A DNA stretch of 64,000 bases from PVC group bacterium (GCA_024231215.1 JAAEQR010000072.1:65210-129209); one strand, 5' to 3'. Counted from the first letter of the stretch, positions 5,266 to 57,733 are shown. Program-made: numbers and translations. Notes: generated by a model from the letters alone, not told the origin.

Positions 5266-5294
5266 GTTAACCAAGTCTAATTTTATGGTTGACA
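5265..5294 (+). promoter_or_regulatory. BirA-operator-like inverted repeat TGTTAACC-N14-GGTTGACA overlapping the bioB promoter/5'UTR
   Basis: Half-sites at 5265-5272 and 5287-5294 (7/8 palindromic). Resembles Firmicute-type BirA bioO half-sites TGTTAACC. Sits between the -10 and the RBS. Confidence 0.4.
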
Positions 5295-5312
5295 ATGGAG
5301 GAGATAAATAAT

Positions 5313-6239
5313 ATGGGATGGGCTGGCAAAGAAGAATGGCAAGCTTTGATTGATATTTCCTTACCTGAATTAATTGCACAGGCGGATAAGGTGAGGAAGC
5401 AATATATAAGTTCGAAGATGGAGCTGTGCAGTATTATTAATGCTAAGTCTGGTGTGTGTGGTGAGGACTGTAAATTTTGCGCGCAATCTTCACATTATAG
5501 TACGGATATTTCTACGTTTTCCCTGGAAAAAGAAGATAAAATTATACAGGAAGCTCAAAAGGCTAAAGATATCGGAGCGGGAAGATTTGGCATTGTAACT
5601 AGTGGGAATAGGTTAAGTGATCAGGAAATATGTCAGCTGAGCACAGTAATTAAAAGGATAAGAAGCGAGATTGGCATTGATGTGTGTGCTTCCTTAGGTG
5701 CGCTTAAAAGAAGTGATTTTGAAACATTAAAAAAAGCCGGGCTTTCCCGCTATCATCATAATATCGAGACTTCGCGGCGGTTTTATCCTCAAGTTGTTTC
5801 AACTCATAATTATGAGGAACGAATTAATACGGTTAAGGCCGCGAAGGAAACAGGCTTGGATATTTGTAGTGGTGGAATTATCGGGATGGGAGAGAGTTGG
5901 CAGGATCGCATTGAAATGGCTTGTACTCTAAAAGAACTGGATGTAGATTCTGTGCCTTTGAATATTCTGGTGCCGATAAAAGGTACGCCTTTTGAGACTG
6001 TTTCGCCTATTTCTTGCAGTGATGTTATTCGGACAATATGTATTTTTCGTATTATTCTTAAAGACAAAACTATAAAGATTGCCGCGGGCAGAGAAGCAAT
6101 ATTAAAGGATTTTCAAGCTGCGGGTTTTATGGCGGGAGCAAATGGTATGCTTATCGGTGGTTATTTAACGATAAAAGGACGCGATGTGCAGGCAGATCAA
6201 CAGCTTTGCCGGGAAATAGAAACATTATGGAAAACATAG
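5313..6239 (+). CDS. bioB: biotin synthase (radical SAM)
   Basis: CGEDCKFCAQSS radical-SAM cysteine triad, and BioB-type auxiliary cluster region. ATG at 5313 is preceded by GGAGGAG at 5297-5303. The ORF track start at 5289 is TTG. Confidence 0.9.
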   Translation: MGWAGKEEWQALIDISLPELIAQADKVRKQYISSKMELCSIINAKSGVCGEDCKFCAQSSHYSTDISTFSLEKEDKIIQEAQKAKDIGAGRFGIVTSGNRLSDQEICQLSTVIKRIRSEIGIDVCASLGALKRSDFETLKKAGLSRYHHNIETSRRFYPQVVSTHNYEERINTVKAAKETGLDICSGGIIGMGESWQDRIEMACTLKELDVDSVPLNILVPIKGTPFETVSPISCSDVIRTICIFRIILKDKTIKIAAGREAILKDFQAAGFMAGANGMLIGGYLTIKGRDVQADQQLCREIETLWKT

Positions 6240-7381
6240 ATAAACTTTTACAATTTAAAAAAGAACAAAATCTTTTGCGGACTTTATATCCCGCTGATAT
6301 GAGAAAGCAGGGGCGGATAGGTTTTGGTACTCAAGATGCTGTTGATTTTTCTTCAAATGATTATTTAGGATTGTCTTCTCATCCGGCGCTTAAGGCAGCA
6401 TTTCAGGCCGCAGGTAATAAATTCGGGGTTGGCACCGCAGGGTCACGGCTTTTAAGCGGAGACCTGAAAATCCATCACCAATTAGAAGAAAGAATTGCGG
6501 TATTTAAAGGCAAGGAAAGAGCATTAGTTTATAATTCCGGATACCAGGCTAATATAAGTATCATTAGTGCTCTTGTTACTAAGCAGGATGTAGTATTTAT
6601 GGATAAGTTATCTCATGCCAGTATCATTGACGGTATAAAGTTATCTGGAGCGAGATTTTTTCGTTTTCAACATAATGATGTGGAACATTTAGAACGGCTT
6701 TTAAAAAAAGAAAGAAACAAATTTAAAGACGCTTTTATTATTACTGAAACTATTTTTAGTATGGATGGTGACCGGTGTCCTTTGCAAGATCTTGTTAGTC
6801 TAAAAAAACAATATAATTGCCGTTTATATATAGATGAAGCGCATGCTACCGGGATTTTTGGAGAAAGAGGTAGTGGTTTAGCTGAGTTAGAAGGAGTGTC
6901 CGCAGATGTGGATTTTATCATGGGAACTTTCAGTAAGGCGCTGGGGAGTTTTGGTGCTTACATTGCAGCTTCATCTAAAGTGATTGAGTATTTAATTAAT
7001 GCTTCCCGTGGGTTTATTTATACTACAGCTCTTCCAGCTGCGGTTATGTCGGCAAATTTAGCGGCTTTAGACCTTGTAGAACAAGAATCCTTCAGGCGTA
7101 AAGTTTTATTGGAAAATGCAGTGTATTTTCGAGAAGAGTTGAAAAAAAGAGGATTTCAGATAAAGGGTGATTCTCAGATTGTTCCCTGGGTGGTGGGAGA
7201 CTCTGAGCGTGCAATGAGTTTGAGCCGGGATTTGAGATCAAGAGGATATTGGGTGCTGCCGATACGGCCTCCAACTGTACCTGCCGGAGAGGCTCGTCTA
7301 AGATTTTCTTTAAATTATGACCATGATAAAGAAACACTGAAGAAATTGATTAATGAGATTGCAGAGATTAAAAATGTATAA
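6227..7381 (+). CDS. bioF: 8-amino-7-oxononanoate synthase
   Basis: PLP-dependent class II aminotransferase fold. SHASIIDG and FSKALGSFGAYIAAS motifs (PLP-lysine region). ATG at 6227 overlaps the bioB stop; the track ORF begins at TTG 6206. Confidence 0.85.
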   Translation: MENIDKLLQFKKEQNLLRTLYPADMRKQGRIGFGTQDAVDFSSNDYLGLSSHPALKAAFQAAGNKFGVGTAGSRLLSGDLKIHHQLEERIAVFKGKERALVYNSGYQANISIISALVTKQDVVFMDKLSHASIIDGIKLSGARFFRFQHNDVEHLERLLKKERNKFKDAFIITETIFSMDGDRCPLQDLVSLKKQYNCRLYIDEAHATGIFGERGSGLAELEGVSADVDFIMGTFSKALGSFGAYIAASSKVIEYLINASRGFIYTTALPAAVMSANLAALDLVEQESFRRKVLLENAVYFREELKKRGFQIKGDSQIVPWVVGDSERAMSLSRDLRSRGYWVLPIRPPTVPAGEARLRFSLNYDHDKETLKKLINEIAEIKNV

Positions 7382-8066
7382 TACAAAATTTGAGCATATT
7401 GATCGAAACTATAAAGATAGTCTGGTTTTGATTCCCGGCTGGGCTACAGATTACCGTATTTTTGAATTGTTTGACTTACCATATAATTATCTTATTCCGA
7501 CGGCGTTTTGGCCGCTTGATTTTGAACAAGAGCTTCTTTTAGTACTGGCGGAAAGAAAGATAGAAGAAATTTCTTTGTTTGGGTATTCATTAGGGGGATT
7601 TTTAGCGGCAGAACTTGCTGTGCGTAATCCTGACTTAATCAGCAAGGTTGTATTAGCCGGAATAAGAACACATTATCCAAAAAAAGAAATTGGACTGGTA
7701 AAAAGACTTTTAAAAAAAGATAAAGTTGGATACCTGGATAAGTTTTATGAACAGTGTTTTTTAGATAATCAGGAATTTTTGCGTTTTAAAGAGAAGCTAA
7801 GCAAAAATTATGTTCAGGAGTTTTCATTAGAGTATTTGCTGAAAACACTAGATTATCTTGAGCAGACATCAATCGACGTAGAATCATTAAATAAGCTTAA
7901 AACAAAGGTGACATTGATTCATGGGGAAGATGATCATATTGCTCCGATTCAAGGAGCCCAGACAATAAAAAATAAGTTGAATAATTGCGGGTTTTTGTTA
8001 CTTGAAGATGTTGGACATTTTCTTTTTTGGGATAAGAAATTTAACGGATTGAATGGATTGTTATGA
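7353..8066 (+). CDS. bioH: pimeloyl-ACP methyl ester esterase-like alpha/beta hydrolase (BioH/BioG-type)
   Basis: GYSLGGFLAAELA nucleophile elbow (GxSxG). Position between bioF and bioC in the operon. Alternative start ATG 7374 overlaps the bioF stop. Confidence 0.6.
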   Translation: MRLQRLKMYNTKFEHIDRNYKDSLVLIPGWATDYRIFELFDLPYNYLIPTAFWPLDFEQELLLVLAERKIEEISLFGYSLGGFLAAELAVRNPDLISKVVLAGIRTHYPKKEIGLVKRLLKKDKVGYLDKFYEQCFLDNQEFLRFKEKLSKNYVQEFSLEYLLKTLDYLEQTSIDVESLNKLKTKVTLIHGEDDHIAPIQGAQTIKNKLNNCGFLLLEDVGHFLFWDKKFNGLNGLL

Positions 8067-8830
8067 GCGTTAAAGAATTGATAAGAAACAATTTTTCTAA
8101 AAGCGCGTCTTCTTATGATGCATATGCACAGGTTCAAAATTTGTGTGCTCGAGAATTGGCTCAAAGGATTAATATTCAGTATCCGGGGACAATTCTCGAT
8201 GTGGGCTGCGGAACCGGTAACTTTAGCCAGCTTTTAAGAACAAAATTTGCTCAGGCAAAAATTACCGGAGTTGATATTTCCGAAGAAATGATTCAACACG
8301 CGAAAATCAGATGTAAGCAGGATGATATTAAGTTTATTGTTGCAGACGCAGAAAGAATGGATTGTTGCGAGCGCTTTGATTTAATTACTTCAAACGCAAC
8401 TATGCAATGGTTTGAAGACCTCCCCGAGGTTTTAAATAAATATAAAAATATGCTTGAAGATCAGGGAATGATAATCATTTCTTTGTTTGGGCCGCAGACA
8501 TTTAGAGAGCTAAATGTCTGCTTGCAGTCTCTATGGGGGACCGAAGATGTTATTTATTCTCAACGATTTCTGGATCAGTATGCGATTGAAGTAATATTTA
8601 AAAAGTTTTTTCAAGAAGTTTTGGTTGAAAAAATAGTGCATAAAGAATGTTTTGATAATGTATGGGATATGTTGTGCAGGATAAAATATACAGGAGTACG
8701 CGGTAATTCTTTTGCCGGGGGAAGCCTTTGGACCCCAAATAGGATTAAGCAGTTGGAGGATATTTATCGGGATAAATTCAAGCGGATAGAAGTAACGTAT
8801 GAGATGTTTTTTTGTCGGGGGGGAAAATGA
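8063..8830 (+). CDS. bioC: malonyl-ACP O-methyltransferase
   Basis: Class I SAM MTase motif ILDVGCGTGNFSQLL. Bio operon context. Start overlaps the bioH stop (ATGA). Confidence 0.8.
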   Translation: MSVKELIRNNFSKSASSYDAYAQVQNLCARELAQRINIQYPGTILDVGCGTGNFSQLLRTKFAQAKITGVDISEEMIQHAKIRCKQDDIKFIVADAERMDCCERFDLITSNATMQWFEDLPEVLNKYKNMLEDQGMIIISLFGPQTFRELNVCLQSLWGTEDVIYSQRFLDQYAIEVIFKKFFQEVLVEKIVHKECFDNVWDMLCRIKYTGVRGNSFAGGSLWTPNRIKQLEDIYRDKFKRIEVTYEMFFCRGGK

Positions 8831-9528
8831 CGGCAATTTTTGTAACCGGAACAGATACCGGAGTAGGAAAAACTATTGTTTGTGGGTTGTTAGGGCGATT
8901 TGCGCAGGATCAGGGGCAGCGGGTGGTTACACAAAAATGGATACAAACCGGAAGTAAGCGTTTTCCTGAGGATATTAGTCGCCATTTACAAATAATGAAA
9001 AGGCATAGACAAGATGTTCGTAAGGAGATTTCTTTTATTTGTCCCTATGTTTTTCCTTTTGCGGCATCACCGCATCTGGCTGCGACGAAGGCTTTAAAAC
9101 GCATTGATAAGAATAAAATAAAACAGGCATTTTGCCGGCTACAGCAGCAGTATGATTGTGTTGTTGTTGAGGGGATTGGCGGTGCGTTAGTTCCTTATAA
9201 TAAAAAAAGATTGGTGATTGATATTGCTAGGGAGTTAAAACTACCGGTATTGATTGTAGTGCAGAATAAACTGGGAGCGATAAATCACACTTTATTAACA
9301 ATTGAAGCTATAAAAAAAAGAAACATGAATCTAATCGGCGTGGTATTTAATACACCAGCCGGGAATGCTCAAAAAATAATTAGAGAGGATAATCGGAAGA
9401 TTATTAATGCTTTAACCGGTATAAAAGTTTTTGGGGAGTTACCATATTCCCAAAATGATGAAGTATTGTATAGTGAGTTTAGGAAATGGGGCAGGAGTAT
9501 TATCAGGAGAAGTAACGATAATGGATAA
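8827..9528 (+). CDS. bioD: dethiobiotin synthetase
   Basis: P-loop MTAIFVTGTDTGVGKT. ATG 8827 overlaps the bioC stop and follows GGGGGGGAAA. The track ORF extends to 8812. Confidence 0.85.
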   Translation: MTAIFVTGTDTGVGKTIVCGLLGRFAQDQGQRVVTQKWIQTGSKRFPEDISRHLQIMKRHRQDVRKEISFICPYVFPFAASPHLAATKALKRIDKNKIKQAFCRLQQQYDCVVVEGIGGALVPYNKKRLVIDIARELKLPVLIVVQNKLGAINHTLLTIEAIKKRNMNLIGVVFNTPAGNAQKIIREDNRKIINALTGIKVFGELPYSQNDEVLYSEFRKWGRSIIRRSNDNG

Positions 9529-10858
9529 GTGGATTAAAAAAGACTTACAATACGTTTGGCATCCTTATACACAGATGAAAGACTGTGAAACATTTCCGCC
9601 GGTTTTAATTGAAAAAGCCAAAGGAATAAAGTTGTTTGATAGTAAAGGAAAGGTGTATTTTGATACCATATCCAGTTGGTGGTGTAATGTTCATGGACAC
9701 AATCATCCACGTATAAAAAAAGCGCTTAAACAGCAGATTGAAAAATTGGACCATGTTCTTTTTGCCGGATTTACGCATAAACCGGCGATTTGTTTAGCGG
9801 AAAAACTGTTGGAGATTAGCCCCCGGAACTTGCGGCGTGTATTTTTTTCAGATAATGGTTCTACAGCCGTGGAATCTGCCCTGAAAATATCATTTCAGTA
9901 TTGGCTGAATAAAGGAAAGAAAGGGAAGAAAAAATTTGTATCCTTAGATCATGCTTATCATGGTGATACGATTGGAGCCATGAACGTTAGCGGTATGAGT
10001 TTATTTAATGAAATGTTTTCCCCGTTATTTTTCTCCTCTTATAAAGTGCCTTCTCCTTATTGTTACCGTTGCCCAGTGAAAAAAAAATACTCTTCTTGCG
10101 GTATTGATTGCATTAGGCCTCTGGAAAAACTACTGGATAAGAAACACCGGGAAATCGCTGCAATTATTCTGGAGCCTTTAGTCATGGCTGCCGGTGGAAT
10201 GATTATTTATCCTAAAGAATATTTAAGAAAAATATCACAGTTGGCTAAAAAGTACGGTACTCATCTGATCTTAGATGAAGTGGCGACTGGTTTTGGGCGT
10301 ACGGGGAAAATGTTTGCTTGTGAACATGCGAATATTAAGCCTGATTTCATGTGTCTTTCTAAAGGAATTACGTCTGGGACGATGCCATTAGCTGCGACGC
10401 TTACTACAGAAAGAATATTCAAGGCGTTTTACGATGATTATCATAAAGGTAAAACATTTTTTCATGGACATACTTATACGGCTAATCCATTAGCTTGTGC
10501 GGCGGCATTAGCCAGCCTGGATATTTTTAAGGAGGAGAAAACGCTGCTTATTATGCAGGATAATATAAGGTTCTTTCATGACGAATTGAAAAAGTTTTCT
10601 GAATTATCTATTGTCGGAGATGTTCGGCAAATTGGTTTTATCGGAGCGCTTGAGCTGGTACAGGATAAAGCAGATAAAACTCCTTTTAAAGCCAGGATCG
10701 GTATGCATATTTATCAGCAAGGGCTTAAACAGGGATTAATTTTACGGCCATTGGGAAATATTGTTTATTTATTTTTACCATTATGTATTAAGAAGAAAGA
10801 GATGGCTGAAGTTTTGCAAAAGACATATAATATTATAAAGGCCTGTAAATGTGTATGA
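9521..10858 (+). CDS. bioA: adenosylmethionine-8-amino-7-oxononanoate aminotransferase
   Basis: Class III aminotransferase (HGHTYTANPLA, DEVATGFGRTG, PLP Lys region CLSKG). Chosen start MDKWIKKDLQYVWHPYTQM at 9521. The track ORF 9431 overlaps bioD in the same frame. Confidence 0.85.
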   Translation: MDKWIKKDLQYVWHPYTQMKDCETFPPVLIEKAKGIKLFDSKGKVYFDTISSWWCNVHGHNHPRIKKALKQQIEKLDHVLFAGFTHKPAICLAEKLLEISPRNLRRVFFSDNGSTAVESALKISFQYWLNKGKKGKKKFVSLDHAYHGDTIGAMNVSGMSLFNEMFSPLFFSSYKVPSPYCYRCPVKKKYSSCGIDCIRPLEKLLDKKHREIAAIILEPLVMAAGGMIIYPKEYLRKISQLAKKYGTHLILDEVATGFGRTGKMFACEHANIKPDFMCLSKGITSGTMPLAATLTTERIFKAFYDDYHKGKTFFHGHTYTANPLACAAALASLDIFKEEKTLLIMQDNIRFFHDELKKFSELSIVGDVRQIGFIGALELVQDKADKTPFKARIGMHIYQQGLKQGLILRPLGNIVYLFLPLCIKKKEMAEVLQKTYNIIKACKCV

Positions 10859-15912: not shown

Positions 15913-16006
15913 TTAAAGAATTTTTTGAACTTTTTCAATCTGCTTTTTAAAGATAATAATAAAAGTTTAGTAATTCAATATATGTGATTTAAAAAGGAGG
16001 ATTATT

Positions 16007-19000
16007 ATGTTTAAGGCTCCACCTAATATGTTTTTGAGGATTACCTCACTAGCAATCATCCAAATATTTTTAATTACTAATGTCTCTTTTGCCGGAGGCA
16101 ATTTTTTTGCCCAAAATCAGGGGGAGGACTGTCTTTCGCCTGCCTTAGAGATCAATGCCGGAGCATTAAAGCAGGGAATATTAGCTGTTATTGAGGGAGA
16201 TAGTATTCCCAATGATGTTTCCAGCTTGGAAATGACCACATTATTGGAAACGGCACTGAGTAATCTTAGTGATATTGAAAATAATTCAGAGGACTTAAAT
16301 CTTGAAGTCTTGGAACAGTCAATAGATCAAGTAAGACAAATTAATGCGCAAATTAATTATCTTACGGGGGGTAGTGACGAGGGAGTAAATGATCTTTATT
16401 CAAGATTTCTTAGTAGACGTTCAGATTTAGCAAAAAAAATATCCGCAATAGTAATAAATGATGTTGCTAAGTATGCAGGTGTTTTAGAAAAGCTAGTTAG
16501 TCAATCAAAAGAGGATATGCATAAGCATATAGCTATGATGGTTGAGAATGAGAAGATAACTGCTACACAGGGAGATGCAACATTAAAAACAGCTATAAAG
16601 TTTCTTGAAGAATGGTTAGCTCCAGGAAATAACATTCCTCAATATATTATTCAGGGTATATATAAGGGGATGTTAGAAGGTCGTTCAGGAGATCTCTTAT
16701 ATGCGTATGGATTTGGCTGGCGTCAGTTTGGTACAGCTGGAATCAGGAATCAGGCGGTGCAAAGTGAATTCCCAGTTTTACTTCAGAAAGAAGTTGATGA
16801 ATTTGCTGAAGATGTGCATGCTCCAATATTAACTGGTCCAAATATGATTAATACAGTTACTTTATTGCAGCAGGTGGCAGCTTTGGTTGGATTGGTCAAA
16901 GATATTAGAACCAAATTGCAGCAAAAACTCAATAAAGGTATGAGTTTGGCAAATGCGGCTGAGGAATGTGGAATAGCTGAAGAATTTGCACAAAACATGT
17001 TGGATAACACGATTACCGTTACCTATGATAGTCGGTTGAATGGGGAATATTTTGCTCAGTTGCTTGGTGCCGCATTTTTGCAGAAAGATATAAAAGTAAA
17101 CCTTATGGATAGTCCATCCGGAGTACCGGCTGGAGTTTCTATTGCAAAAGGTGCTTCTTTTTTTGGTGAATTGGTTAAAGATTCTCGTTTTGCTGAGTTT
17201 GAACAGATAACAGGATCTATTTTTGGAATTCTTATTTCTGCCAGTCATAGTGAAGCAGAATATAATGGGTTTAAAGCATTTTTGGCGTATCAAAAATCAC
17301 AAGTAGATGCTGATAGTAAAAATATGATAATGGATGCCAGGGGAAATGTTAACTATAGCGATATAAACATGCGATTAGATACAGGATCTAAAGAAGATTT
17401 AAGATTGATATTTAGAAAATATAAGAATAATTTAATCTGGCTGGGTGGGGAGAAGAAAGTAGATGGCAAAGATTATTGTGGTGCCAAATTCGTACCTTTT
17501 TATCCGCTTTATTTTGAATATTTACGTAAAAGATCACCGATTCCTTATGCTGAATTGTCAAGTGATGATATTGAATCGATTAATGCAGCGAAAAAAGATC
17601 TAGGCATCTTATATACTGCTTTTTATGGTGGCGGATCTGTTTCTGCTGCTAATCTACCGGGATTTTTCCAGGAAATGGGATATGATAATGTAGCTATTGT
17701 AGATAAACAAACTAAAGTTATGGATGGGAAATTTCCAGGGCATATAATGCCTGATCCGGGTGTTGTAGAAGGATGGATGAGTAATTTGTATCATTTTCTT
17801 CAGCAGATAGCCGGAGAGGATTTGTCGGATATAGAAAAAGCCGTAGAAATGCTTAATAATAGACAGACGGGTGCTGCTACAGACCCGGATGTTGACCGGG
17901 CAGGTATGATGTTGGATTTAGAACCAGGGCAGCAAGGCAATGTGCGGGATGCTTTTATTGACTGGATAAGTCGGAATTTACAATACAGAGATGATATTTT
18001 GCCTGAAAAAAAACAACATATTATTAATGTTTTAACAAATAATTTAAAAGATAAATTGTTATTAACGGCAAATGATTCCTGGACATTTATGGCATATTAT
18101 AAGCTGCAGATCAGGGAAAAATATGGGTTGCTGGATAAAAACAAGCTTTACATCATTGAAAAATCCCATGTTACTACAGACGGGCTTGAAAATGTTGCCG
18201 CATATTATCGCAAGAAAGGTTATCGTGTGTATGTTGTGGATACATATGTAGGATTTACAGAATTGGCTAAAAAAAGCCGGGATTTGTTTGCTATAGCAAA
18301 AAAGGCATGGAAGATCAAAAAAATGTTAGATAAGTTAGATGAGCCAAATGAGCAAGAACTAAGGTGGGGTGAACTAGAAGAATTGCTGATAGAACTTAAA
18401 CAAGAGAATAAGATTTTAAAGACTAATGTTCCGTATGCTACCGCTGGATTACCCATAGTTGATGAGGCTATAGAGGCATTTGAAAATAGTAATTTTCAAA
18501 AAGCGGAAGAACTCTGGAATAGTATTGCCCATATGGAGAATATTTTGGCTTGTGAGGAAAGTAACGGTTATGGAGAGCTGGGGGAATATATTCCGGAAGA
18601 AGATAAAGTAGTGAATGCCCACATATCTGAAAAGGATGGAGGGTTAGCTTTGTTTGAGTTTTTTGAAATACTCTCTTATGGAAAAGCTGTTTTGGGAAAA
18701 TCGGAATATTCGATGTTTTTAGATATGCTTAGCGAAATAGGGTATTGTACAACAGATAACCAGTTTTTAAAATATCCGGGGCTTAGCGGGGTTCAGGAAA
18801 AAGTGGATGCGATTGAGAGTTTTGAAAAGGTATTTGCAGCTTTAATTCAAAAGGCTATTGATCAGGGCCAGGTAGTTACTTTATTTAATGGAAAGTATAC
18901 AGTAGAAGAAGTTATCGTTTACAGAGATAAAAAATATGATATTACTTATAATGGGTTTCCTGAGGAAGGAATCCGTTTAGTTTTGCGTACACAGAAGGGG

Positions 19001-22000
19001 AGCAAAGCGATAACAACATTTAGACCTTCCGGCACCGGTGATAATAACCGGGATTATAACTGGATAGTGGGTTTGATTCCTGAGACTGGGACTGATATGG
19101 AAGTTTATAGGAGAGAAAAAGTACAGGAATTAGAAGAACTCAGGGCTGATTTTTTTGGTGAATTTGGAGTTTCTGTTGGTTATGCAGATTTGCCTAAAGG
19201 TGAATTTTATGGATTGTTGACTGCAATGTGGGAATCAGGCAGTAATAGTCATTTAGCAATATTCAACAAAGCTTTAGACATAGAAGTTAACTTTACTTCA
19301 GCTGAAAACAAGTTACTTGATGCTGTAAAAATGTTTACCTTTGCGACAAGAGATAGAAAACGGGAATATATGAAAATGACTCCGGATCAAATGTGCGAAG
19401 AATTGCGTAAGACTCTTTTGTCCGCAAGGCGAAATCGAGCTGCATGGAATAAATATCTTTCTGCGAAGGAAGCAACAGAGTATAAAGATGTATTTAAGGT
19501 ATATGTTAATGGTGAAGTATTTGCTGAAGTCCCGAAAGTTTTTGTTAAACCGTGGATGATCGGGTTTGCCGGATATATTGCTGAAGAGTTGATCGTAAAC
19601 AGATTGGATTTAACAAGTGCTTGGGTTGATACGGATGATTTGGAAGTGACAGATGAGATACGTTTTCAGATAGATAAATTACAGCAAATAAGGCAGGAAT
19701 TGAATGAAATGCATAGAGCCGAACGTGAAGCAGCAGAAACTCTTTCTGGAAAACTGCATACACCTTTGGAAACAGAAAATCCTGATATGGCGGCACGATA
19801 TCTCAAGGGTGGATATCAGCAAGATGGATATGGTGTTCCATCGGGAGCGGTCATCGACGGCTCCTTTGCGGTGGGTGTTGCAGGGACTCAGGGATACTAT
19901 GTGTATGGAGGCAAAGAGATATTTCAAGGGATTGTTGCAAGTATGAAGAAGTTTTTCAAAAAACGAGCTAAAAGGTTAGGCAAGCCGATAAAATTGGTTA
20001 TAAAGATAGGTATTGGCGGACAGCATACTCCATTTCAAGCGATTGCTGAGGGATTTCAGGTGGTGGATTCTGAAACAGGAATTATTGTCGGGGAGTATGA
20101 GTTAGGGAAGGATTATGAGACATCTCTTTCGGAAATTGTAGAAAAGATGGGTATTGATTGGGATCAGATAGCTGTTATACCGAGCTCTAAATCCGGTTCT
20201 ACGGATGAGACGATGATGATCTTTGATGATGTTTTAGCTGTACTGCTTAAATATATTGCTTCTATGAAATATAACATTGACGGAGAAAAATTTACAGATA
20301 CTGTTTTTCAGGTATTGCATGAAGTGAATTTTGTTGATGGTAAAGAGCGTTCTGGGAAAGATCTTTTTAAGATAAATAAAGAGCGTTTTGGCACGGATAG
20401 TTTGGTAGAAGTGCTCTATGAACGGTTACAAGATAAAAGGATGCAAATAAGTAAAAGCGGAATAAAAGATATATTTGCGATAGTTCTCGGTAATATGTTT
20501 TTTGAGACTACCGATAGAGTAGAAGCAAGCAGATTGTCAGCATTTATCAGAAACTCCGGACTAGATAAGGAGCTTGGTGAAGATGCTCCAGGGTTTGGTG
20601 CAATGTTTGATAATGTCGGTGGCAGATGGACCAGTGATTTGCATATGATGACATTTCTTGCTTTCCATGATTTAAATGAGGAGCTGTATTATAAGAAAAG
20701 GATGGAAGAAATATTTAGGGTTCTTGCCGGTTCACCTTCAGTGAGGCTGTATCAGGATATAAAAGAAAAAATAGATGATGATGGCACACATAAGGGGTAT
20801 ATGTTAGGCAATCGTATTGCTGAGGAAACGATAACGGATATTGCTCTAGTGTTGCCGGATTATTTATTCTGGTTTGGAAAATCAATAGAACAGAATTTTA
20901 ACGAAAGTACTTGGCAGAAAGGCTTTGTAAATCTTGTTGCGATTAAACAAAGCCAATGGGGTGTTCAGAAAAAAAATTATGTGGACAGGTCTGAAAGACT
21001 GGTAATTAACCTGTCTAACTTAGATATTGATGAAAATAGTTTTAATGTGTATACCCGAAATTTCCCTGATTTTACTAAGTTGCAAAAACAGGATATCTCT
21101 GGTCAGTACGCATCTTTATTTAGCATGTTCTATGGAATTACTCATAATTTGGGTAACCGGCTGATTATCAGAGCACTTACAGCTGCCGGATATAATGTAG
21201 AAGATGTTAACTTAAATGATTTAGATAATCCTGCGACTAAAATTGTTCAGCAAAATCTTTATGTATTACAGCCTTTTGTAGAATTAGGGAAGAAACTATT
21301 GGAAAATAGATTAAAAATGCTGCAATCAGCAGAGGTAAAAAGCCCGGGAGTTATTGCTCAGGCTGAAGATGAGATTAAAAGGCTGGCAAGGGAAGGTACC
21401 ATAGAATCAAATATTCCAAGCATGGATATGCCAGATAGTGTGCAGGATATGGGAACACTGGCTAAGGTTATTAAGCAAGCAATTGAACATGCAAGGCAAG
21501 CTAATCGTAAATTTGCGCCGTTTATTTATTTAGAAGGTGGTAAATTTATGGATATGAGGGATTACCTGACAGAGTTGGGTATAGAGTGGGTTATGCAGGG
21601 TACGGGGGATCAGCATATTAGTTATCAGCAGGTATTAGCTCAGCCGCAGAAATATTCTATATTTATTATTTCATTTGTTCCTGAACAATTTATTCCGGGT
21701 AAGCCGGCAATTGGTTTTGCAAAAGGGTATTTGCATAATATTAGTCCTAATATGGTGAGAGATTATTTTGCGGAAGCTTCTTATCGGGCGCTTACTCAGT
21801 TAAGAGTTGAACAGGGTGGGAGAGGGATCTTCCTGCGTTTAATCGACTCACAGGAAAATATATCTATGATAAAAAAGGCAATGGTGGCAGCTCTGAATGA
21901 TGAAGTTCAAAATGAGATGGTAGCTGATTCACCGGCTGTTGCTGAGAATGATTCTGTAAAAACAGAAGAAGTGATAACTGTTATCCAGAGCGCAATTTAA
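16007..22000 (+). CDS. giant (1,997 aa) exported multidomain protein: Sec signal peptide + unknown N-domain + PGM1-like alpha-D-phosphohexomutase (4 domains) + coiled-coil linker + phosphoglucose-isomerase-like SIS module
   Basis: Signal peptide aa 1-30 (h-region ...SLAIIQIFLITNV, SFA-GG). Phosphohexomutase signatures: FGTAGIRN (nt ~16730), catalytic SASHSE-x3-NGFK (nt ~17237), DGKFPGHIMPDP (nt ~17723), Mg loop DPDVDR (nt ~17882), sugar loop CEESNGYGE plus EKDGGLALFEFF (nt ~18551), phosphate loop RPSGTGD (nt ~19022). PGI signatures: IGIGGQ (nt ~20006), SKSGSTDET (nt ~20186), GGRWTS (nt ~20618), GTGDQHISYQQ catalytic-His region (nt ~21599). Confidence 0.8.
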   Translation: MFKAPPNMFLRITSLAIIQIFLITNVSFAGGNFFAQNQGEDCLSPALEINAGALKQGILAVIEGDSIPNDVSSLEMTTLLETALSNLSDIENNSEDLNLEVLEQSIDQVRQINAQINYLTGGSDEGVNDLYSRFLSRRSDLAKKISAIVINDVAKYAGVLEKLVSQSKEDMHKHIAMMVENEKITATQGDATLKTAIKFLEEWLAPGNNIPQYIIQGIYKGMLEGRSGDLLYAYGFGWRQFGTAGIRNQAVQSEFPVLLQKEVDEFAEDVHAPILTGPNMINTVTLLQQVAALVGLVKDIRTKLQQKLNKGMSLANAAEECGIAEEFAQNMLDNTITVTYDSRLNGEYFAQLLGAAFLQKDIKVNLMDSPSGVPAGVSIAKGASFFGELVKDSRFAEFEQITGSIFGILISASHSEAEYNGFKAFLAYQKSQVDADSKNMIMDARGNVNYSDINMRLDTGSKEDLRLIFRKYKNNLIWLGGEKKVDGKDYCGAKFVPFYPLYFEYLRKRSPIPYAELSSDDIESINAAKKDLGILYTAFYGGGSVSAANLPGFFQEMGYDNVAIVDKQTKVMDGKFPGHIMPDPGVVEGWMSNLYHFLQQIAGEDLSDIEKAVEMLNNRQTGAATDPDVDRAGMMLDLEPGQQGNVRDAFIDWISRNLQYRDDILPEKKQHIINVLTNNLKDKLLLTANDSWTFMAYYKLQIREKYGLLDKNKLYIIEKSHVTTDGLENVAAYYRKKGYRVYVVDTYVGFTELAKKSRDLFAIAKKAWKIKKMLDKLDEPNEQELRWGELEELLIELKQENKILKTNVPYATAGLPIVDEAIEAFENSNFQKAEELWNSIAHMENILACEESNGYGELGEYIPEEDKVVNAHISEKDGGLALFEFFEILSYGKAVLGKSEYSMFLDMLSEIGYCTTDNQFLKYPGLSGVQEKVDAIESFEKVFAALIQKAIDQGQVVTLFNGKYTVEEVIVYRDKKYDITYNGFPEEGIRLVLRTQKGSKAITTFRPSGTGDNNRDYNWIVGLIPETGTDMEVYRREKVQELEELRADFFGEFGVSVGYADLPKGEFYGLLTAMWESGSNSHLAIFNKALDIEVNFTSAENKLLDAVKMFTFATRDRKREYMKMTPDQMCEELRKTLLSARRNRAAWNKYLSAKEATEYKDVFKVYVNGEVFAEVPKVFVKPWMIGFAGYIAEELIVNRLDLTSAWVDTDDLEVTDEIRFQIDKLQQIRQELNEMHRAEREAAETLSGKLHTPLETENPDMAARYLKGGYQQDGYGVPSGAVIDGSFAVGVAGTQGYYVYGGKEIFQGIVASMKKFFKKRAKRLGKPIKLVIKIGIGGQHTPFQAIAEGFQVVDSETGIIVGEYELGKDYETSLSEIVEKMGIDWDQIAVIPSSKSGSTDETMMIFDDVLAVLLKYIASMKYNIDGEKFTDTVFQVLHEVNFVDGKERSGKDLFKINKERFGTDSLVEVLYERLQDKRMQISKSGIKDIFAIVLGNMFFETTDRVEASRLSAFIRNSGLDKELGEDAPGFGAMFDNVGGRWTSDLHMMTFLAFHDLNEELYYKKRMEEIFRVLAGSPSVRLYQDIKEKIDDDGTHKGYMLGNRIAEETITDIALVLPDYLFWFGKSIEQNFNESTWQKGFVNLVAIKQSQWGVQKKNYVDRSERLVINLSNLDIDENSFNVYTRNFPDFTKLQKQDISGQYASLFSMFYGITHNLGNRLIIRALTAAGYNVEDVNLNDLDNPATKIVQQNLYVLQPFVELGKKLLENRLKMLQSAEVKSPGVIAQAEDEIKRLAREGTIESNIPSMDMPDSVQDMGTLAKVIKQAIEHARQANRKFAPFIYLEGGKFMDMRDYLTELGIEWVMQGTGDQHISYQQVLAQPQKYSIFIISFVPEQFIPGKPAIGFAKGYLHNISPNMVRDYFAEASYRALTQLRVEQGGRGIFLRLIDSQENISMIKKAMVAALNDEVQNEMVADSPAVAENDSVKTEEVITVIQSAI

Positions 22001-22008
22001 ACAATAAT

Positions 22009-22072
22009 TTAGCTGCAAATACCGACATGCCCCGTCAGGGTTTTTCTGACGGGGTTTTGTTATATAATAAGG
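22009..22072 (+). repeat. ~65-bp intergenic repeat copy A (TTAGCTGCAAATACCGACATG-[hairpin]-TTTTGTTAT-ATAAGG)
   Basis: ~85% identical to the copy at 24712-24777, same orientation. Confidence 0.8.
22030..22060 (+). terminator. rho-independent terminator after giant gene (CCCCGTCAG-loop-CTGACGGGG + TTTTGTTAT)
   Basis: 9-bp GC-rich stem at 22030-22038/22046-22054 followed by a T-tract. Lies inside repeat copy A. Confidence 0.7.
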
Positions 22073-22088
22073 TTAGAGGAGGAAAGGT

Positions 22089-24434
22089 TTAAATTGACTG
22101 TTCATAGATAAAATGATTATTTATTTCATCTTGAATTTTATGATTATTTTTTGAAGACATATTGATATCCTTGTCCCATGAATTTTGTTTTTCTTCTATT
22201 AAGTCTACTATCCGTTTTCCATAGCCGTTGATTCCATCTTCATTTTCAATTGCTTCTAAAGACATCCAAAGCCAATCAATAGCATTTTGCACAGTATCAA
22301 CATCGTCTTTCACATTAGCTCTAGCATTAGCGCTTACTGATTCATACAATTTCTTATTAGTAAATAAGCTGTACAATCTATTCGCTACTTTTAACTCCTG
22401 AGCCCCATTGCGACTAACTATAAATGTCGAACCGGTTATTTTTCCTGCTTTTTTTCTAACAGGCACTGCCTGATCAACCGGTCCCGGGAGATCAGTAATA
22501 ATAGTTGGTATTTCTAGTGAGCCAAGTTCAGAAATTTTTATTTCGTAACCTTCTGCTGTAGATAACTGTGTCCCAACCCAATCATTAGCAGCAAGAACAC
22601 CTAAGATCTGGTCATTATGGCCTATTCGTGCTATTTTGATATCACTGAATAACTCTTTATATTCTAAATATGCTTCTAAGAGATATTTATTATACAAAGG
22701 CATCCCCTCAGGATCATCTATTGCGCCATGCCCGGCAATAACCAACTGTGGTATTTTTGCCTTTGGATAGGTCTCTCCCAATTTATCACGAAAGACTTTA
22801 TAAGCTTTCAAAAGATCAAGGATACCCTTTGCAGGGTCAAAGCGACAAATCTGTAATATATAAGGTCTGGTAAAATCTAATGGCTCCTGTTGAAATTTTG
22901 CTAAAAAGTCTCTTAATTTTTGATCTTCTCGGTCTTTAATATTTACTCGATTGTCATTCTCTAATAAATTTAACAGGTTTTCCTGCTGTTTAGACAATTC
23001 ATTTTTATCTGCTATTTGTAATATTCTTTTATTACTTAGGTTCAGTACTGTATTAAACATATTCATATAATATGATTTGTCGCTTTTACTAAAATAATTA
23101 AATTTGTTAAGTCCGTCAAGACCGCCTAAACCTTGTTTTGAAATATCGGAAGCTGCTCCTTTTTTGATTATTATTTTTTTGTGACGGCGAATATCGTTTG
23201 GGATAAAAGCATCAACTGGATGCGTCACAAAAGCTTCAATGTGAAATTTATTTTTGCGTGCATCCCAAAGATTTTCGAAAATATACTTCCAATTAGTCTT
23301 AGTTGAATTAGAATCATCTAAAGGTAAATCAGTCAAGTTGCTTCTTATCTGGATATGTGATCTATAAAGAATTTTTATATGTGGATATTTTTCTTTAATT
23401 AAAGGTATTAACCCGGATGGTTGATAATCATCAATTATAACTACAGTTGCTCTTTTTATTTTTGGCTCCATTAATTTAAAATTATAATTAGTCCACGCTT
23501 TAAGTCTCTGTTTGTCATGCTCTGTAAGCCTATGATCAAAATTAGCAGCATTTGTATTTTGCAATGCATTATGCATCTTCTTTTTTGTTATGTTCGGAAT
23601 ATCCTCAAACTCTTTACCATCTAGATCCATTGCAAGCCAGTGGGCATCGATACCTAAAAGTTTATAAAGACGAATAAGCGCATGACGCATAAGAGCGACT
23701 CCTCCGCCTTGAGCAGTAGAATTAACAAATACCATATTTAATTTTCTTTTTTTTGCAAGCTTAACAAGATGTAAAAGTGTGTGCCATTTTTTAGGCGGAG
23801 TAATCTTTTTATATTCATCAAGAGTTACTAACGGATTTACTTGGATTTCTCTATTTTTATCGATCATAACTTTGCGTATTACAAGACCAACTTCGTCTAC
23901 TTCAAAGCTATTTGCGGCAAGACTCGCAGCATTCTGAGATATTTGCTCTGATGTGCCATTTGGAAGATTCTCAAATATTTTCACAGGAACAATATCGTTA
24001 TTAAGCCAAAGATTGCTGCCCAGCTTTGCTTTTTCGTTGGCAGATAATCCTTTTCCTTCAATTGCTACGCCATGTACTTTTAAAGGGTTACCCTTCTTGC
24101 GCATGCCCTCAACATCCTCTCTTATAGCTTCAATTATATCCTTATTAGTTCTTAAGAAAGTTTTAGTTTGACCATTCTTACCATTGGAATTAATTGTTAA
24201 GCTAAAGCTATCTTTAGTTATACATATGCCAGCAAAGGCGGGCTCTAAAGATAGCTTATCCAGATAGGCATTCATAACTGTTGACTTGTTTATACTTATG
24301 GAGGGGGATAGCGTGGACATTATGGTGCTATTGGCGGCAAAAGACAAATCCAGATATAAAAATGCCTGGATAATGATAAATGATATTACCTTTAAAAATA
24401 GTCTATTTTTTGATTCGTACTTATACATATACAC
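22089..24434 (-). CDS. TreT-like GT4 retaining glycosyltransferase with signal peptide and ~200-aa N-terminal extension
   Basis: aa 236-300 VNSTAQGGGVALMRHALIRLYKLLGIDAHWLAM...FEDIP...MHNALQN closely matches the N-terminal motif of trehalose glycosyltransferring synthase (TreT). FDPAKGILDLLKAY. E628-x7-E636 (STAEGYEIKISELGSL...ITDLPG) GT4 motif. N-terminal signal peptide MYMYKYESKNRLFLKVISFIIIQAFLYLDLSFA-AN. Confidence 0.75.
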   Translation of the reverse strand: MYMYKYESKNRLFLKVISFIIIQAFLYLDLSFAANSTIMSTLSPSISINKSTVMNAYLDKLSLEPAFAGICITKDSFSLTINSNGKNGQTKTFLRTNKDIIEAIREDVEGMRKKGNPLKVHGVAIEGKGLSANEKAKLGSNLWLNNDIVPVKIFENLPNGTSEQISQNAASLAANSFEVDEVGLVIRKVMIDKNREIQVNPLVTLDEYKKITPPKKWHTLLHLVKLAKKRKLNMVFVNSTAQGGGVALMRHALIRLYKLLGIDAHWLAMDLDGKEFEDIPNITKKKMHNALQNTNAANFDHRLTEHDKQRLKAWTNYNFKLMEPKIKRATVVIIDDYQPSGLIPLIKEKYPHIKILYRSHIQIRSNLTDLPLDDSNSTKTNWKYIFENLWDARKNKFHIEAFVTHPVDAFIPNDIRRHKKIIIKKGAASDISKQGLGGLDGLNKFNYFSKSDKSYYMNMFNTVLNLSNKRILQIADKNELSKQQENLLNLLENDNRVNIKDREDQKLRDFLAKFQQEPLDFTRPYILQICRFDPAKGILDLLKAYKVFRDKLGETYPKAKIPQLVIAGHGAIDDPEGMPLYNKYLLEAYLEYKELFSDIKIARIGHNDQILGVLAANDWVGTQLSTAEGYEIKISELGSLEIPTIITDLPGPVDQAVPVRKKAGKITGSTFIVSRNGAQELKVANRLYSLFTNKKLYESVSANARANVKDDVDTVQNAIDWLWMSLEAIENEDGINGYGKRIVDLIEEKQNSWDKDINMSSKNNHKIQDEINNHFIYEQSI

Positions 24435-24711: not shown

Positions 24712-24777
24712 TTAGTTGCAAATACCGATATGCCCCGTCAGGTTTTTTTTGACGGGATTTTGTTATTTTCAATAAGG
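24712..24777 (+). repeat. ~65-bp intergenic repeat copy B with terminator-like hairpin (CCCGTCA-GGTTTTTTT-TGACGGG)
   Basis: Direct repeat of 22009-22072. Located in the divergent promoter region between the GT4 gene (-) and mscS (+). Confidence 0.8.
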
Positions 24778-32247: not shown

Positions 32248-32496
32248 ATGTTTAGTGTTGGGATGCCGGAGCTTATTTTAGTGTTTGTGGTGGCTTTACT
32301 TGTTTTTGGGCCGCGTAAGCTGCCTGAAATTGGTCGTACCCTGGGAAAGGCTATGCGCGAATTTAAGCGTGCAGCCGATGATTTTAAAGAAGCAATAAAT
32401 CAGGAACCTCCAGAAGAATTGGTAAAAGAAGTAGAAGATAAGTTAAAGGCGAATGAAGAAGAGCTGAAAAAAGAAGGGAAGGAGCTTAGTGGTTAA
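32248..32496 (+). CDS. tatA: twin-arginine translocase subunit TatA/TatB family
   Basis: [42 protein letters not shown]: TM helix + hinge Gly-Pro + amphipathic helix. Confidence 0.85.
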
Positions 32497-33223
32497 GACA
32501 AAATCCCGTATGGATAACCCCCTGTCGATTATTCAGCATTTAGAGGAGATGCGTAACCGGATTCTTATTTCTTTGCTTTTAATTATCGTTTGTACTTCTT
32601 TAGGCTATAGTTTTATTCCTCAGATAATGAAGATTATTACGAAGCCTGTAGGTAAACTTTATTTCATGGGGCCGACTGAGGCTTTCTGGGTGCAATTAAA
32701 AGTAGCTTTGTTTGTCGGACTTTATTTTTCTCTGCCGTTTATTTTTTATCAAGTCTGGAAGTTTGTAGAGATTGGACTGAAGCAGAAAGAAAGATCTTTT
32801 CTTGGTCCGTTGAGTTTTTCTTCATTTTTTCTGTTTAGTGTAGGAGGGGCTTTTTGTTATCTGATAGTTATTCCGGTCGCAATGAAATTCCTGCTTTCTT
32901 ATGGATCGTCGATTTTACAGCCATTGATTTCGGTAAGTAAATATGTATCATTTATCGGATGTATGATTTTTGCTTTTGGTATTACTTTTCAGTTGCCGTT
33001 GGTTATGCTGTTTCTCGGTCGGCTGGGGATTGTTCAGGATCAGGCTTTGAGGAAGTTCCGGCGTTTTGCTATTGTCGGTAGTTTTATTATTGCTGCTGCG
33101 CTTACACCTACGCCGGATATGGTGAATCAGACACTTTTGGCTTTGCCGATTATTGTGTTGTATGAGTTGAGTATTTGGTTAGTGAAAATTTTCGGACGCA
33201 AGGAAAATGATAATTTGGAATAA
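32489..33223 (+). CDS. tatC: twin-arginine translocase subunit TatC
   Basis: Six TM helices. N-terminal [15 protein letters not shown]. Conserved TatC P/G-rich loops. Confidence 0.85.
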
Positions 33224-35921: not shown

Positions 35922-36383
35922 TTAAAGATACGTCTTTAATTTTTCCCAGGTTTTGGGGCCGACAACCCCATCTATAGTTAAATTATTTTCTCTCTGAAAT
36001 TCGCGGATTACTTTTTTTGTCTTAGGCCCCATTTGTCCGTCAATATGCCCAGGGTTAAATCCAGCTCCTTTTAACGCTTTTTGTATATCAGTGATGCGTA
36101 TTTTTTTCGCGATAGTCGAAGAGTCTTTTCCCACCGCGGGCAAAACTTCTGCCGGGGATACCGATACCGGATTTTGATAGTCTTGTCCTTGTTCAGAGAG
36201 CAACTTTATATTCATCTCCGGTCTACTAATTATCTGGATTTCCGGAGAAACACATTCTTCAGGCGCTGCTTTTTTAGCCGCCTTCGGGTGTTTTCCCATT
36301 GCCATGACCGGAAGAAGAAGGGATGTTTTCAGCATGAGAGCGACAATTAAAAGTGCTGTGAAAAACAAAAGCCTTCTTTTCAA
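35922..36383 (-). CDS. peptidoglycan-binding (PG_binding_1) domain protein, exported
   Basis: Signal peptide. C-terminal LKGAGFNPGHIDGQMGPKTKKVIREFQRENNLTIDGVVGPKTWEKL matches the PG_binding_1 repeat. Confidence 0.65.
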   Translation of the reverse strand: MKRRLLFFTALLIVALMLKTSLLLPVMAMGKHPKAAKKAAPEECVSPEIQIISRPEMNIKLLSEQGQDYQNPVSVSPAEVLPAVGKDSSTIAKKIRITDIQKALKGAGFNPGHIDGQMGPKTKKVIREFQRENNLTIDGVVGPKTWEKLKTYL

Positions 36384-56836: not shown

Positions 56837-57733
56837 GTGATGGTTAAAAAGGATAATGATTATAATACAATTCTGCAAGAATGGAAAACCCTTCGTGGGG
56901 AAACTCTCCAATCTCAAAAACAAAGACTGAATACTTTCAGGACATCAATAATAATATTAGCGGTTATTTATATTGCGTATTTAATCCCGGGATTGAAGCT
57001 ATATAAACAGCCGTTATTTTTTCAGACATTCATTTTATTGTTTCTTACCCCGATTGTTCGTTTTGTTAGTTCTCTCAGGTTGCGGGATAGTTTTCATGCT
57101 TGCTATATTGAAAATTTCATCAAGATGCAATTACCGCAGGTGCGTTATATTGCCCGGTTCAGTGAATTTAAAAAGAATTTTCGCAATCAAATATCAGCCG
57201 CGGAAAGAATCAGATGTACTTATTTGCAAATAGGCATATCAACTATACCTTTTACAATCGGGTATTCGTTTTTTTTATTTGAGCCGGGGACTCTATGGTA
57301 TGTTCGTTTAGGTGCGTATACTCCTTATCATGACTTGTGGCTGCGGGTTGGTTTTTTCGTAAGCGCATTGATTTATTTTATTTGGACGATTTATGTTTGT
57401 CGTTATGATACGCAGAAAACAACTAAATTTTTTAATGAATTAAGGCAAATTCTGATCAAGGAATTGTTGACCGGAGAGATTGTTCCTTATGGCTTTAACA
57501 CTGGTTCGTTTCAGCATCCGGAAGCTTGGCATTCGCTTTTTGGGAAGGAAAATATTACGCAGAAGAAAGATATTTTATTGTCTCTAAAAAAGCTAGAAGA
57601 TGAATTCGCGGGAGTGAAATTTCTGATTAAATCTTTAAATAAAATGTGGTTTAAAAATCCAGTTAAAGATTTATTGTATTATGATCTAGAGAAAGAAGAG
57701 TATGGAGATAAAACGCGGTTGATATTAAATTGA
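56837..57733 (+). CDS. hypothetical integral membrane protein (4-5 TM)
   Basis: Hydrophobic segments. No motifs recognised. Confidence 0.4.
   Translation: MMVKKDNDYNTILQEWKTLRGETLQSQKQRLNTFRTSIIILAVIYIAYLIPGLKLYKQPLFFQTFILLFLTPIVRFVSSLRLRDSFHACYIENFIKMQLPQVRYIARFSEFKKNFRNQISAAERIRCTYLQIGISTIPFTIGYSFFLFEPGTLWYVRLGAYTPYHDLWLRVGFFVSALIYFIWTIYVCRYDTQKTTKFFNELRQILIKELLTGEIVPYGFNTGSFQHPEAWHSLFGKENITQKKDILLSLKKLEDEFAGVKFLIKSLNKMWFKNPVKDLLYYDLEKEEYGDKTRLILN

Follow-up and report, generated by a model that had tools for sequence, protein, structure and literature searches.

Signal peptides that carry a lineage-restricted motif in an otherwise standard architecture, often at the head of very large proteins, are known from the YSIRK-G/S, KxYKxGKxW (accessory Sec) and ESPR classes, whose motifs are believed to adjust how or when the protein is exported. 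Other lineage-specific protein sets are marked by sortase-type signals (LPXTG, PEP-CTERM), composed of an outer-side motif, a hydrophobic helix and a cytoplasmic basic cluster, and kinetoplastid glycosomes receive many glycolytic enzymes through a short conserved tag (PTS1/PTS2) that relocates part of sugar metabolism. Here we examine an N-terminal leader of about 55 residues shared by two convergent genes in a 64,000-nucleotide stretch of bacterial DNA (GCA_024231215.1, JAAEQR010000072.1:65210-129209; hereafter, the window). The genes encode a giant phosphoglucomutase (PGM)-type protein and a TreT-like GT4 glycosyltransferase (GT), and the leader is very probably a genuine, selected and cargo-specific module.

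The window belongs to a low-GC (~37%) metagenome-assembled genome deposited as 'PVC group bacterium' (708-kb contig; locus tags GY853_02950 and GY853_02955), whose proteins find all their closest relatives in Candidatus Omnitrophota. This widespread, uncultured phylum consists of ultra-small bacteria that presumably live on other cells. According to two preprints, long and giant Omnitrophota proteins join a signal peptide or transmembrane (TM) helices to cytoplasmic-type sugar enzymes (PGM, PGI, FBPase, aldolase and GT1 domains) and are predicted to be extracytoplasmic or membrane-associated, a localization paradox that was left unresolved (West-Roberts et al. 2023, 10.1101/2023.11.21.568195; 10.64898/2026.06.07.730766). 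The leader-bearing proteins described here come from the same phylum and pose the same paradox, at 350-3400 aa instead of >10,000 aa. Term searches of the two preprints turned up topology classes, but neither these nor term searches of other Omnitrophota papers and full-text literature searches revealed a conserved leader sequence or the downstream box described below, and the word 'motif' is absent from the text of the 2026 preprint (10.64898/2026.06.07.730766); the leader is thus apparently previously undescribed.

Two convergent genes share their N-termini

The giant protein begins with MFKAPPNMFLRITSLAIIQIFLITNVSFAGGNFFAQNQGEDCLSPALEINAGALKQ, and the GT open reading frame (ORF), on the minus strand, with (V)YMYKYESKNRLFLKVISFIIIQAFLYLDLSFAANSTIMSTLSPSISINKSTVMNAYL; both strings occur exactly where a sequence-only reading of the window had placed them. 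That reading also held that the two N-termini can be aligned beyond generic hydrophobicity, and BLASTP aligned 58 residues with 18 identities (E=9e-6), the similarity extending past the hydrophobic helix into a second block, LSPxxxIN, which reads DCLSPALEIN in the giant protein and STLSPSISIN in GT. The Smith-Waterman score was 70, a value reached in none of 5000 whole-sequence shuffles and none of 5000 region-preserving shuffles. When 12 other N-termini of the window with a signal peptide or TM helix were compared with each other, the 66 pairwise scores had a median of 24 and did not exceed 50. The shared region comprises ~55 residues: a basic n-region, an indel-free core of 18 residues and, 8-16 residues further on, a conserved block that we call the LSP box (Table 1).

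Chance-level resemblance and a misplaced start codon were the two flaws that could have undone this observation. The former is at odds with the scores above, and the latter was ruled out by the AGGAGG preceding ATG 16007, by the deposited GT start and by orthologs with an in-frame leader. The GT ORF could be extended to a GTG at 24434 (781 aa), two codons upstream of the ATG at 24428 where the deposited protein (P0001) starts. The similarity of the two N-termini is therefore confirmed as real and statistically solid. With 61% identity at the DNA level, the two cores are too divergent for a recent duplication or gene conversion.

We also built a profile from 13 leaders of other proteins, excluding the window proteins and their orthologs. 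It scored 59.0 bits on GT and 56.3 bits on the giant protein, whereas the next best of all window ORFs of at least 40 aa reached 8.0 bits, in the LSP part only. Likewise, a broad leader profile gave at most 7.3 bits with the ordinary signal peptides of the window, among them that of an outer membrane beta-barrel protein at 4.2 bits. These results indicate that two or more kinds of signal-like N-terminus are in use in the organism, and that the special kind in the window, absent from its ordinary envelope proteins, sits on the giant protein and GT.

Anatomy and conservation of the leader

We compared 41 leaders for core length, 38 distinct leaders for the patterns of the n-region and the box, and 18 for net charge; alignment A2 contains 18 leaders from proteins with differing catalytic domains. 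From the Lys/Arg to the Ala, the core was exactly 18 residues long in all 41 leaders, without indels, with the consensus [IV][IV]S[FLI][IV][IL][IV][QH]xFLxx[ND][IVL][SAC][FWY]A. It is preceded by an n-region of the class K-N-[RKN]-x-[FIY]-[LFV]-[KR], with Lys or Arg immediately before the core in all 38 leaders; net charge ranges from +1 to +5 before the core and from -3 to +1 over the next 20 residues. The h-region consists of 13 mostly hydrophobic residues (Kyte-Doolittle 19-residue maxima of 1.6-2.25), followed by a polar c-region, [ND]-x-[SAC]-[FWY]-A. Around the potential cleavage site, every A2 sequence has Ala at -1, a small residue (chiefly S/A/C) mostly occupies -3, and A, G, S or F is found at +1. 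The leader thus has the sequence properties of a Sec/signal peptidase I (SPase I) substrate, namely a positive n-region, an h-region of suitable length, small residues at -3/-1 and no Pro at +1.

Five positions are invariant in A2 (F21, L22, A29, L43 and P45) and S44 is conserved in at least 90% of the sequences. The strict form of the box, L[SA]Px[LIVM]x[IVL], was present in 18 of the 38 leaders, 8-16 residues after the core Ala, within a wider consensus [DN][CT]L[SA]Px[LI]xI...[LF]...F; other leader subclasses have LRP or LAP in place of LSP. Directly preceding the invariant Leu of the box (window 16130..16132 and 24312..24314), 6/18 sequences of A2 have Cys and 10/18 have Thr, usually with Asp/Asn ahead of it, and this conserved nucleophile suggests a putative modification or processing site.

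The unrelated giant and GT proteins share 9/18 core residues, the same identity as between orthologs (50%), whose catalytic domains are 60-75% identical, so the same positions are held everywhere. The length of 18 residues and at least seven positions are far more constrained than export alone would demand; besides the length, the additional constraints are Gln/His in the hydrophobic core, F-L, Asn/Asp, an aromatic residue at -2 and the second box past the predicted cleavage site. A one-sided conserved helix face was also considered and dropped, since the helical moment of conservation was not significant (p=0.09).

The enzymes behind the leader

PGM_PMM_I was the sole Pfam match of the giant protein above the gathering cutoff. 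Four loops occur in the correct order, SASHSE (residue 411), DPDVDR (626), CEESNG (849) and RPSGTG (1006); they correspond to the phosphoserine, metal (DxDxDR), sugar (EES) and phosphate (RxSGT) catalytic loops of alpha-D-phosphohexomutases, so that the module has the sequence features of this family. Homology of the C-terminal ~700 aa was found to P0122 only, and no match appeared in Pfam or among PDB sequences; the AF2 model had a pLDDT of 49 and gave no significant fold match (best Foldseek E=0.13), a few SIS proteins being listed with the weak ones. A possible PGI/SIS identity is suggested by the motifs SKSGSTDET and GGRWT. Because this half of the protein gave no assignment, the description of the two genes as functionally related, made in the sequence-only reading, rests on the PGM module and the TreT-like GT.

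The GT protein matched Pfam TreT_GT1 (PF21269, 8.8e-26) and, below the Pfam gathering cutoff, Glycos_transf_1 (PF00534, 1.6e-5), as well as the PDB entry of TreT 2x6q (E=3.9e-20), and contains an EX7E-type motif, AEGYEIKISE, at residue 625. These are the features of a TreT-like GT4 retaining glycosyltransferase, as which the product is predicted to act; a synthase or a phosphorylase could both fit.

The leader is the only hydrophobic segment in the giant protein and in GT, and also in FBPase, PGM and UGPase carriers. It was conserved in an ortholog of the giant protein, P0123 (VKVISVFIVHTFLISNVSWAF...DCLSPALKI), and in the GT orthologs P0002 and P0003 (...RLIPLIFVQIFLCLSLSYAGN...TLSPQLILN), in genomes where the two genes do not adjoin. 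GT homologs of ~600 aa from Patescibacteria and Chloroflexota begin at the N-domain and lack the first ~55 residues, indicating that the leader is an addition in the Omnitrophota proteins.

A recurrent leader with varied cargo

An exhaustive search of 1.84 billion representative proteins with a profile of 18 leaders yielded 42 matches at E≤1e-3, 41 of which start within the first 25 residues of the protein, and all carriers with a source name were from Omnitrophota or a PVC-group bacterium. Related leaders also stand at the start of other large fusion proteins of Omnitrophota, retrieved by means of the PGM module. Altogether, 40 or more protein clusters whose catalytic domains are unrelated begin with the leader (Table 1), often in tandem genes. 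These results support the proposal in the sequence-only reading of a possibly dedicated, non-generic leader, or else of a duplicated leader cassette, in that they define a distinct and recurrent class. A word-indexed protein search with the same profile, a method unsuited to a leader of 50 residues, returned 108 candidates and only three short matches. A scan of GTDB genomes with the pattern DCLSPALxI[NI] found a single 3.8-kb contig, and a metagenome scan found four loci informative on synteny.

Leader genes often adjoin one another: L004 and L007 each have three in a row, L008 has two, and L009 and L012 have three or four. In L001 (12639..14447, minus strand), the convergent neighbour of the GT ortholog is a gene for a protein of ~590 aa with no Pfam domain and a different hydrophobic N-terminus, after which it carries the box of the giant protein, GDCLSPELHIQAPDLRQ.

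In L007, the called start of a PGK-containing gene of 1211 aa (6231..9935) lies inside the leader, and the in-frame upstream sequence MSFKLLKKIVLIFTLAAF restores it in full. Annotation is therefore affected, and gene callers may be truncating such leaders systematically. Loci L009 (2397..12934) and L012 (1312..11971) are syntenic, with leader genes interleaved with genes for PilZ-domain and PAS + HD_5 (HD-GYP-type) proteins, and PAS/HD_5, PAS or receiver genes also stand beside leader genes in L006 (8403..9752) and L003 (6289..7208). These neighbours hint at a possible link to c-di-GMP-type signalling. Several leader-bearing proteins also contain a HAD-phosphatase-like motif I (DxDxT, as VFDLDETL, FDIDDTL or FDLDNTL) without a Pfam HAD annotation, in L002 (3473..3823; P0175), in the N-terminal regions of P0129 and P0131, in L009 (2787..6197), and near the C-terminus of P0151.

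Table 1. Features of the two leader-bearing genes in the window, and domains found on leader-bearing proteins
Feature	Position or carrier	Strand	Details
Giant ORF	16007..22000	+	1997 aa; identical to NCBI GY853_02950 (P0121)
Shine-Dalgarno AGGAGG	15995..16000	+	6 nt before giant ATG 16007; read from sequence
Giant leader n-region	16007..16039	+	Residues 1-11, MFKAPPNMFLR, net charge +2
Giant leader 18-residue core ITSLAIIQIFLITNVSFA	16040..16093	+	h-region with Gln19, F21-L22, Asn25; S-F-A end at invariant Ala29
Giant LSP box DCLSPALEINAGALKQGI	16127..16180	+	Residues 41-58; conservation in A2
Phosphohexomutase module	16970..19096	+	Pfam PGM_PMM_I 9.1e-8; four canonical loops in order
Giant C-terminal ~700 aa	19877..22000	+	SIS/PGI-like motifs SKSGSTDET (residue 1394), GGRWT (1538)
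Terminator-like 12-bp GC-rich hairpin + T-run	22029..22055	+	Between the two convergent genes
TreT-like GT4 glycosyltransferase	22089..24428	-	779 aa from ATG 24428; identical to NCBI GY853_02955 (P0001)
GT LSP box STLSPSISINKSTVMNAYL	24261..24317	-	Residues 38-56
GT leader 18-residue core VISFIIIQAFLYLDLSFA	24336..24389	-	9/18 positions identical to giant core
GT leader n-region MYKYESKNRLFLK	24390..24428	-	Residues 1-13, net charge +3
PGM	Many carriers
PGI / GPI	P0129, P0145, P0154, P0166
Transaldolase	P0154
FBPase class II	P0168, P0180
Class II aldolase	P0180
PFK + methyltransferase	P0144
UGPase	P0135, P0137, P0144
PGK	L007
Polysacc_synt_2 / epimerase	P0174		Sugar epimerase/dehydratase
NUDIX	P0158
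S-adenosylmethionine (SAM) methyltransferase	P0161
HATPase_c	L009
TreT-GT4	P0001, P0002, P0003

Comparison with known signals

When five leaders were scanned against the Pfam and NCBIfam models (E≤10), all matches were at chance level and to unrelated TM families, and no model covered the leader. No family-model match at this threshold was obtained for the YSIRK-G/S, KxYKxGKxW and ESPR classes, from which the leader differs in its motifs, their positions and the host phylum, in the second box after the predicted cleavage site, and in a cargo of cytoplasmic-type enzymes, not adhesins. A lipoprotein signal (signal peptidase II) was rejected because +1 is never Cys; the Cys of the LSP box lies 7-15 residues beyond +1 and is mostly preceded by Asp or Gly. 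Type IV pilin and pseudopilin signals were likewise rejected, as G-F-x-x-x-E occurs in no leader and no pilin N-terminal model matched. The spacing of L-S-P-x-L-x-I differs from the L-S-x-x-E-L-x-x-I-x-G-G of double-glycine (C39 peptidase) leaders, and there is no conserved GG.

Topologically, the leader resembles a mirror image of the sortase-type signals. The latter are C-terminal and their motif abuts the helix, whereas the leader is N-terminal and has an SPase-I-like site and a spacer of 8-16 residues; no sortase-like partner was found for it. Its likeness to glycosome targeting is a functional analogy only, because that system is eukaryotic, its signals and machinery are unrelated to the leader, and Omnitrophota have no known compartment. 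The leader can thus be described as a signal peptide that is specific to a lineage, bears a motif and is extended by a box downstream, and its interest lies in its cargo.

Possible roles of the leader

Our preferred explanation, to which we give a rough probability of 0.45, is that a specialized Sec-type signal peptide is combined with a second address box, and that both would send a set of proteins to a common extracytoplasmic destination or partner. The giant and GT N-termini would be copies of a lineage-specific, bipartite module of ~55 residues that Omnitrophota attach to particular proteins, mostly large fusions of sugar-phosphate and sugar-nucleotide enzymes. From its charge flanks, h-region and Ala/small-residue end, the first part is predicted to behave as a Sec-type, SPase I-type signal peptide, inserting N-in/C-out through Sec and probably being cleaved after the invariant Ala. 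The LSP box would then lie exposed near the new N-terminus, where it would be recognized in a second step that could be docking, modification or further sorting. What we infer here from the amino acid sequences is how the leader is oriented in the membrane, that it is cleaved, what the box does, the destination, and the common sorting route that the sequence-only reading had suggested.

Some individual proteins have a bearing on this topology. The SAM methyltransferase domain of P0161 is placed after a second hydrophobic segment, a layout that would fit an outward-pointing leader with the enzyme returning to the cytoplasm. No typical secreted-enzyme or envelope domain was found on the sampled carriers, save one weak PG_binding_1 match on a leader-bearing gene of L004, which weakly supports a putative extracytoplasmic position for the LSP box.

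A separate observation concerns a window gene (35922..36383, minus strand) for a peptidoglycan-binding protein of 153 aa (PG_binding_1, 4.7e-18), in which an LSP-like box, ECVSPEIQI, comes after an ordinary signal peptide. This protein matches the leader profile at the LSP part only (8 bits, E=0.04), and likewise gives weak support to a box that would function outside the cytoplasm.

Several points weigh against the export of these enzymes to a common destination. The most serious is the cargo (PGM, PGI, transaldolase, FBPase, aldolase, PFK, PGK, UGPase, NUDIX, SAM methyltransferase and HATPase_c), which uses sugar phosphates, ATP, UTP or SAM, compounds that, to our knowledge, are all expected to be confined to the cytoplasm. 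The 64 kb examined, of a contig of at least 708 kb, yielded no candidate for a sorting machine, and leader scoring within the source genome covered the ORFs of the same 64-kb window. The carrier sample is small and was partly seeded from one family, that of the giant protein, although the query of the decisive search was limited to the first ~50 residues, and roughly half of the newly found carriers that were scanned had no Pfam domain. Possible ways round the conflict posed by the cargo are a membrane-tethered assembly with an unexpected topology, an extracytoplasmic chemistry fed by a host, or delivery into the host.

The fixed length of 18 residues and the polar Gln/His and Asn/Asp inside a hydrophobic helix point more to specific helix packing than to a signal peptide that is discarded, and could be explained if the leader were an uncleaved signal-anchor. 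The helix would then stay in the cytoplasmic membrane and tether the enzymes in a sugar-metabolizing assembly, possibly feeding a glycan export machine, with core residues Ser3, Gln/His8, Phe10-Leu11, Asn/Asp14 and the aromatic at 17 packing on a partner membrane protein or on each other, and with the LSP box as a juxtamembrane docking element. Tandem leader genes would suit co-assembly, and the cargo includes enzymes for the synthesis of NDP-sugars and glycans (UGPase, Polysacc_synt_2 and GT4). Classically, c-di-GMP controls exopolysaccharide synthesis, and PilZ and HD-GYP-type genes lie within the two syntenic leader-gene clusters. The 2026 preprint also reads the sugar-metabolism modules of long Omnitrophota proteins as membrane-anchored (10.64898/2026.06.07.730766). 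We nevertheless consider an anchor rather unlikely, because the [SAC]-[FWY]-Ala end is a textbook cleavage site and the conserved positions are not significantly clustered on one face of the helix. Moreover, the N-tail is basic and the C-flank neutral or acidic, so that by the positive-inside rule the catalytic part would lie outside and the cofactor problem persists.

That the anatomy fully obeys the generic Sec/SPase I rules, that many carriers are related to one PGM-type family and that no dedicated machinery was identified would also be expected of an ordinary Sec signal peptide with no dedicated route, an N-terminal cassette shuffled within a rapidly expanding fusion family and kept by inertia. 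This is harder to reconcile with the presence of the leader on unrelated domains (TreT-GT4, FBPase, aldolase, PGK, methyltransferase, NUDIX and epimerase), or with a second conserved box past the cleavage site. Signal peptides usually drift fast, whereas the positions of the leader are held equally across families and orthologs, and the envelope proteins of the window use different signal peptides; we thus regard inertia as a clearly unlikely explanation. A divergent Tat signal, through which the enzymes would be exported folded and loaded with cofactors, is very improbable. The end of the basic n-region, x-[FIY]-[LFV]-[KR], resembles the x-F-L-K of the Tat consensus, the core is moderately hydrophobic and contains polar residues, the end is of the AxA type, the 29-34 residues up to the Ala make for a long leader, and the window encodes TatC. 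However, RR occurs at the consensus positions in 0/38 leaders, and anywhere in the n-region in 3/38, no Tat-signal model matched at E≤10, and a cargo of 200-350 kDa would be very large for Tat. The tatC gene itself lies at 32489..33223 (plus strand; PF00902, 5.1e-66), although the leaders have no twin arginine.

Returning to the specialized Sec signal with a second address, its boldest form is rather doubtful. The two-part address would move much of upper glycolysis/gluconeogenesis and of sugar-nucleotide synthesis (PGM, PGI, PFK, FBPase, aldolase, transaldolase, PGK, UGPase and GT4) out of the cytoplasm, to the periplasm, the surface or an attached host or prey cell, and a sorting or modifying machine would read the LSP box, perhaps at its conserved Cys/Thr. 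If true, the relocated sugar enzymes would be a prokaryotic counterpart of glycosome-type relocation. The recurrence of the leader on dozens of normally intracellular enzymes sharpens the question of where Omnitrophota run their sugar chemistry, and a compact, searchable leader that marks this protein set makes the localization puzzle testable, through the number of carriers per genome, a co-occurring gene, cleavage, and the destination of reporters. Divergent, leader-bearing PGM/PGI fusions might also add to the apparent lack of hexose-entry enzymes reported for many Omnitrophota genomes.

Other features of the window

GC-rich hairpins with T-runs lie on either side of the GT gene (22029..22055 and 24734..24756) and have the arms CCCGTCAGG...TGACGGG in common, perhaps as copies of a terminator or of a palindromic element. 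Outside the leader class, a window gene at 57725..58912 (minus strand) encodes an HD/HD_5 protein, of a normally cytoplasmic type, with a signal-peptide-like N-terminus (MKNSILLKTTVYILLLAVWLTSAPAANAQLCP...). Its HD_5 domain recalls the HD-GYP-type genes near leader genes in the metagenome loci, and it gives the window another case of a cytoplasmic-type domain behind an export-type N-terminus. Finally, by their N-terminal motifs, such as CGEDCKFCAQSSHY and GTDTGVGKT, the ORFs at 5289..10858 (plus strand) resemble what is presumably a biotin-synthesis cluster (bioB, bioF, bioC, bioD and bioA).

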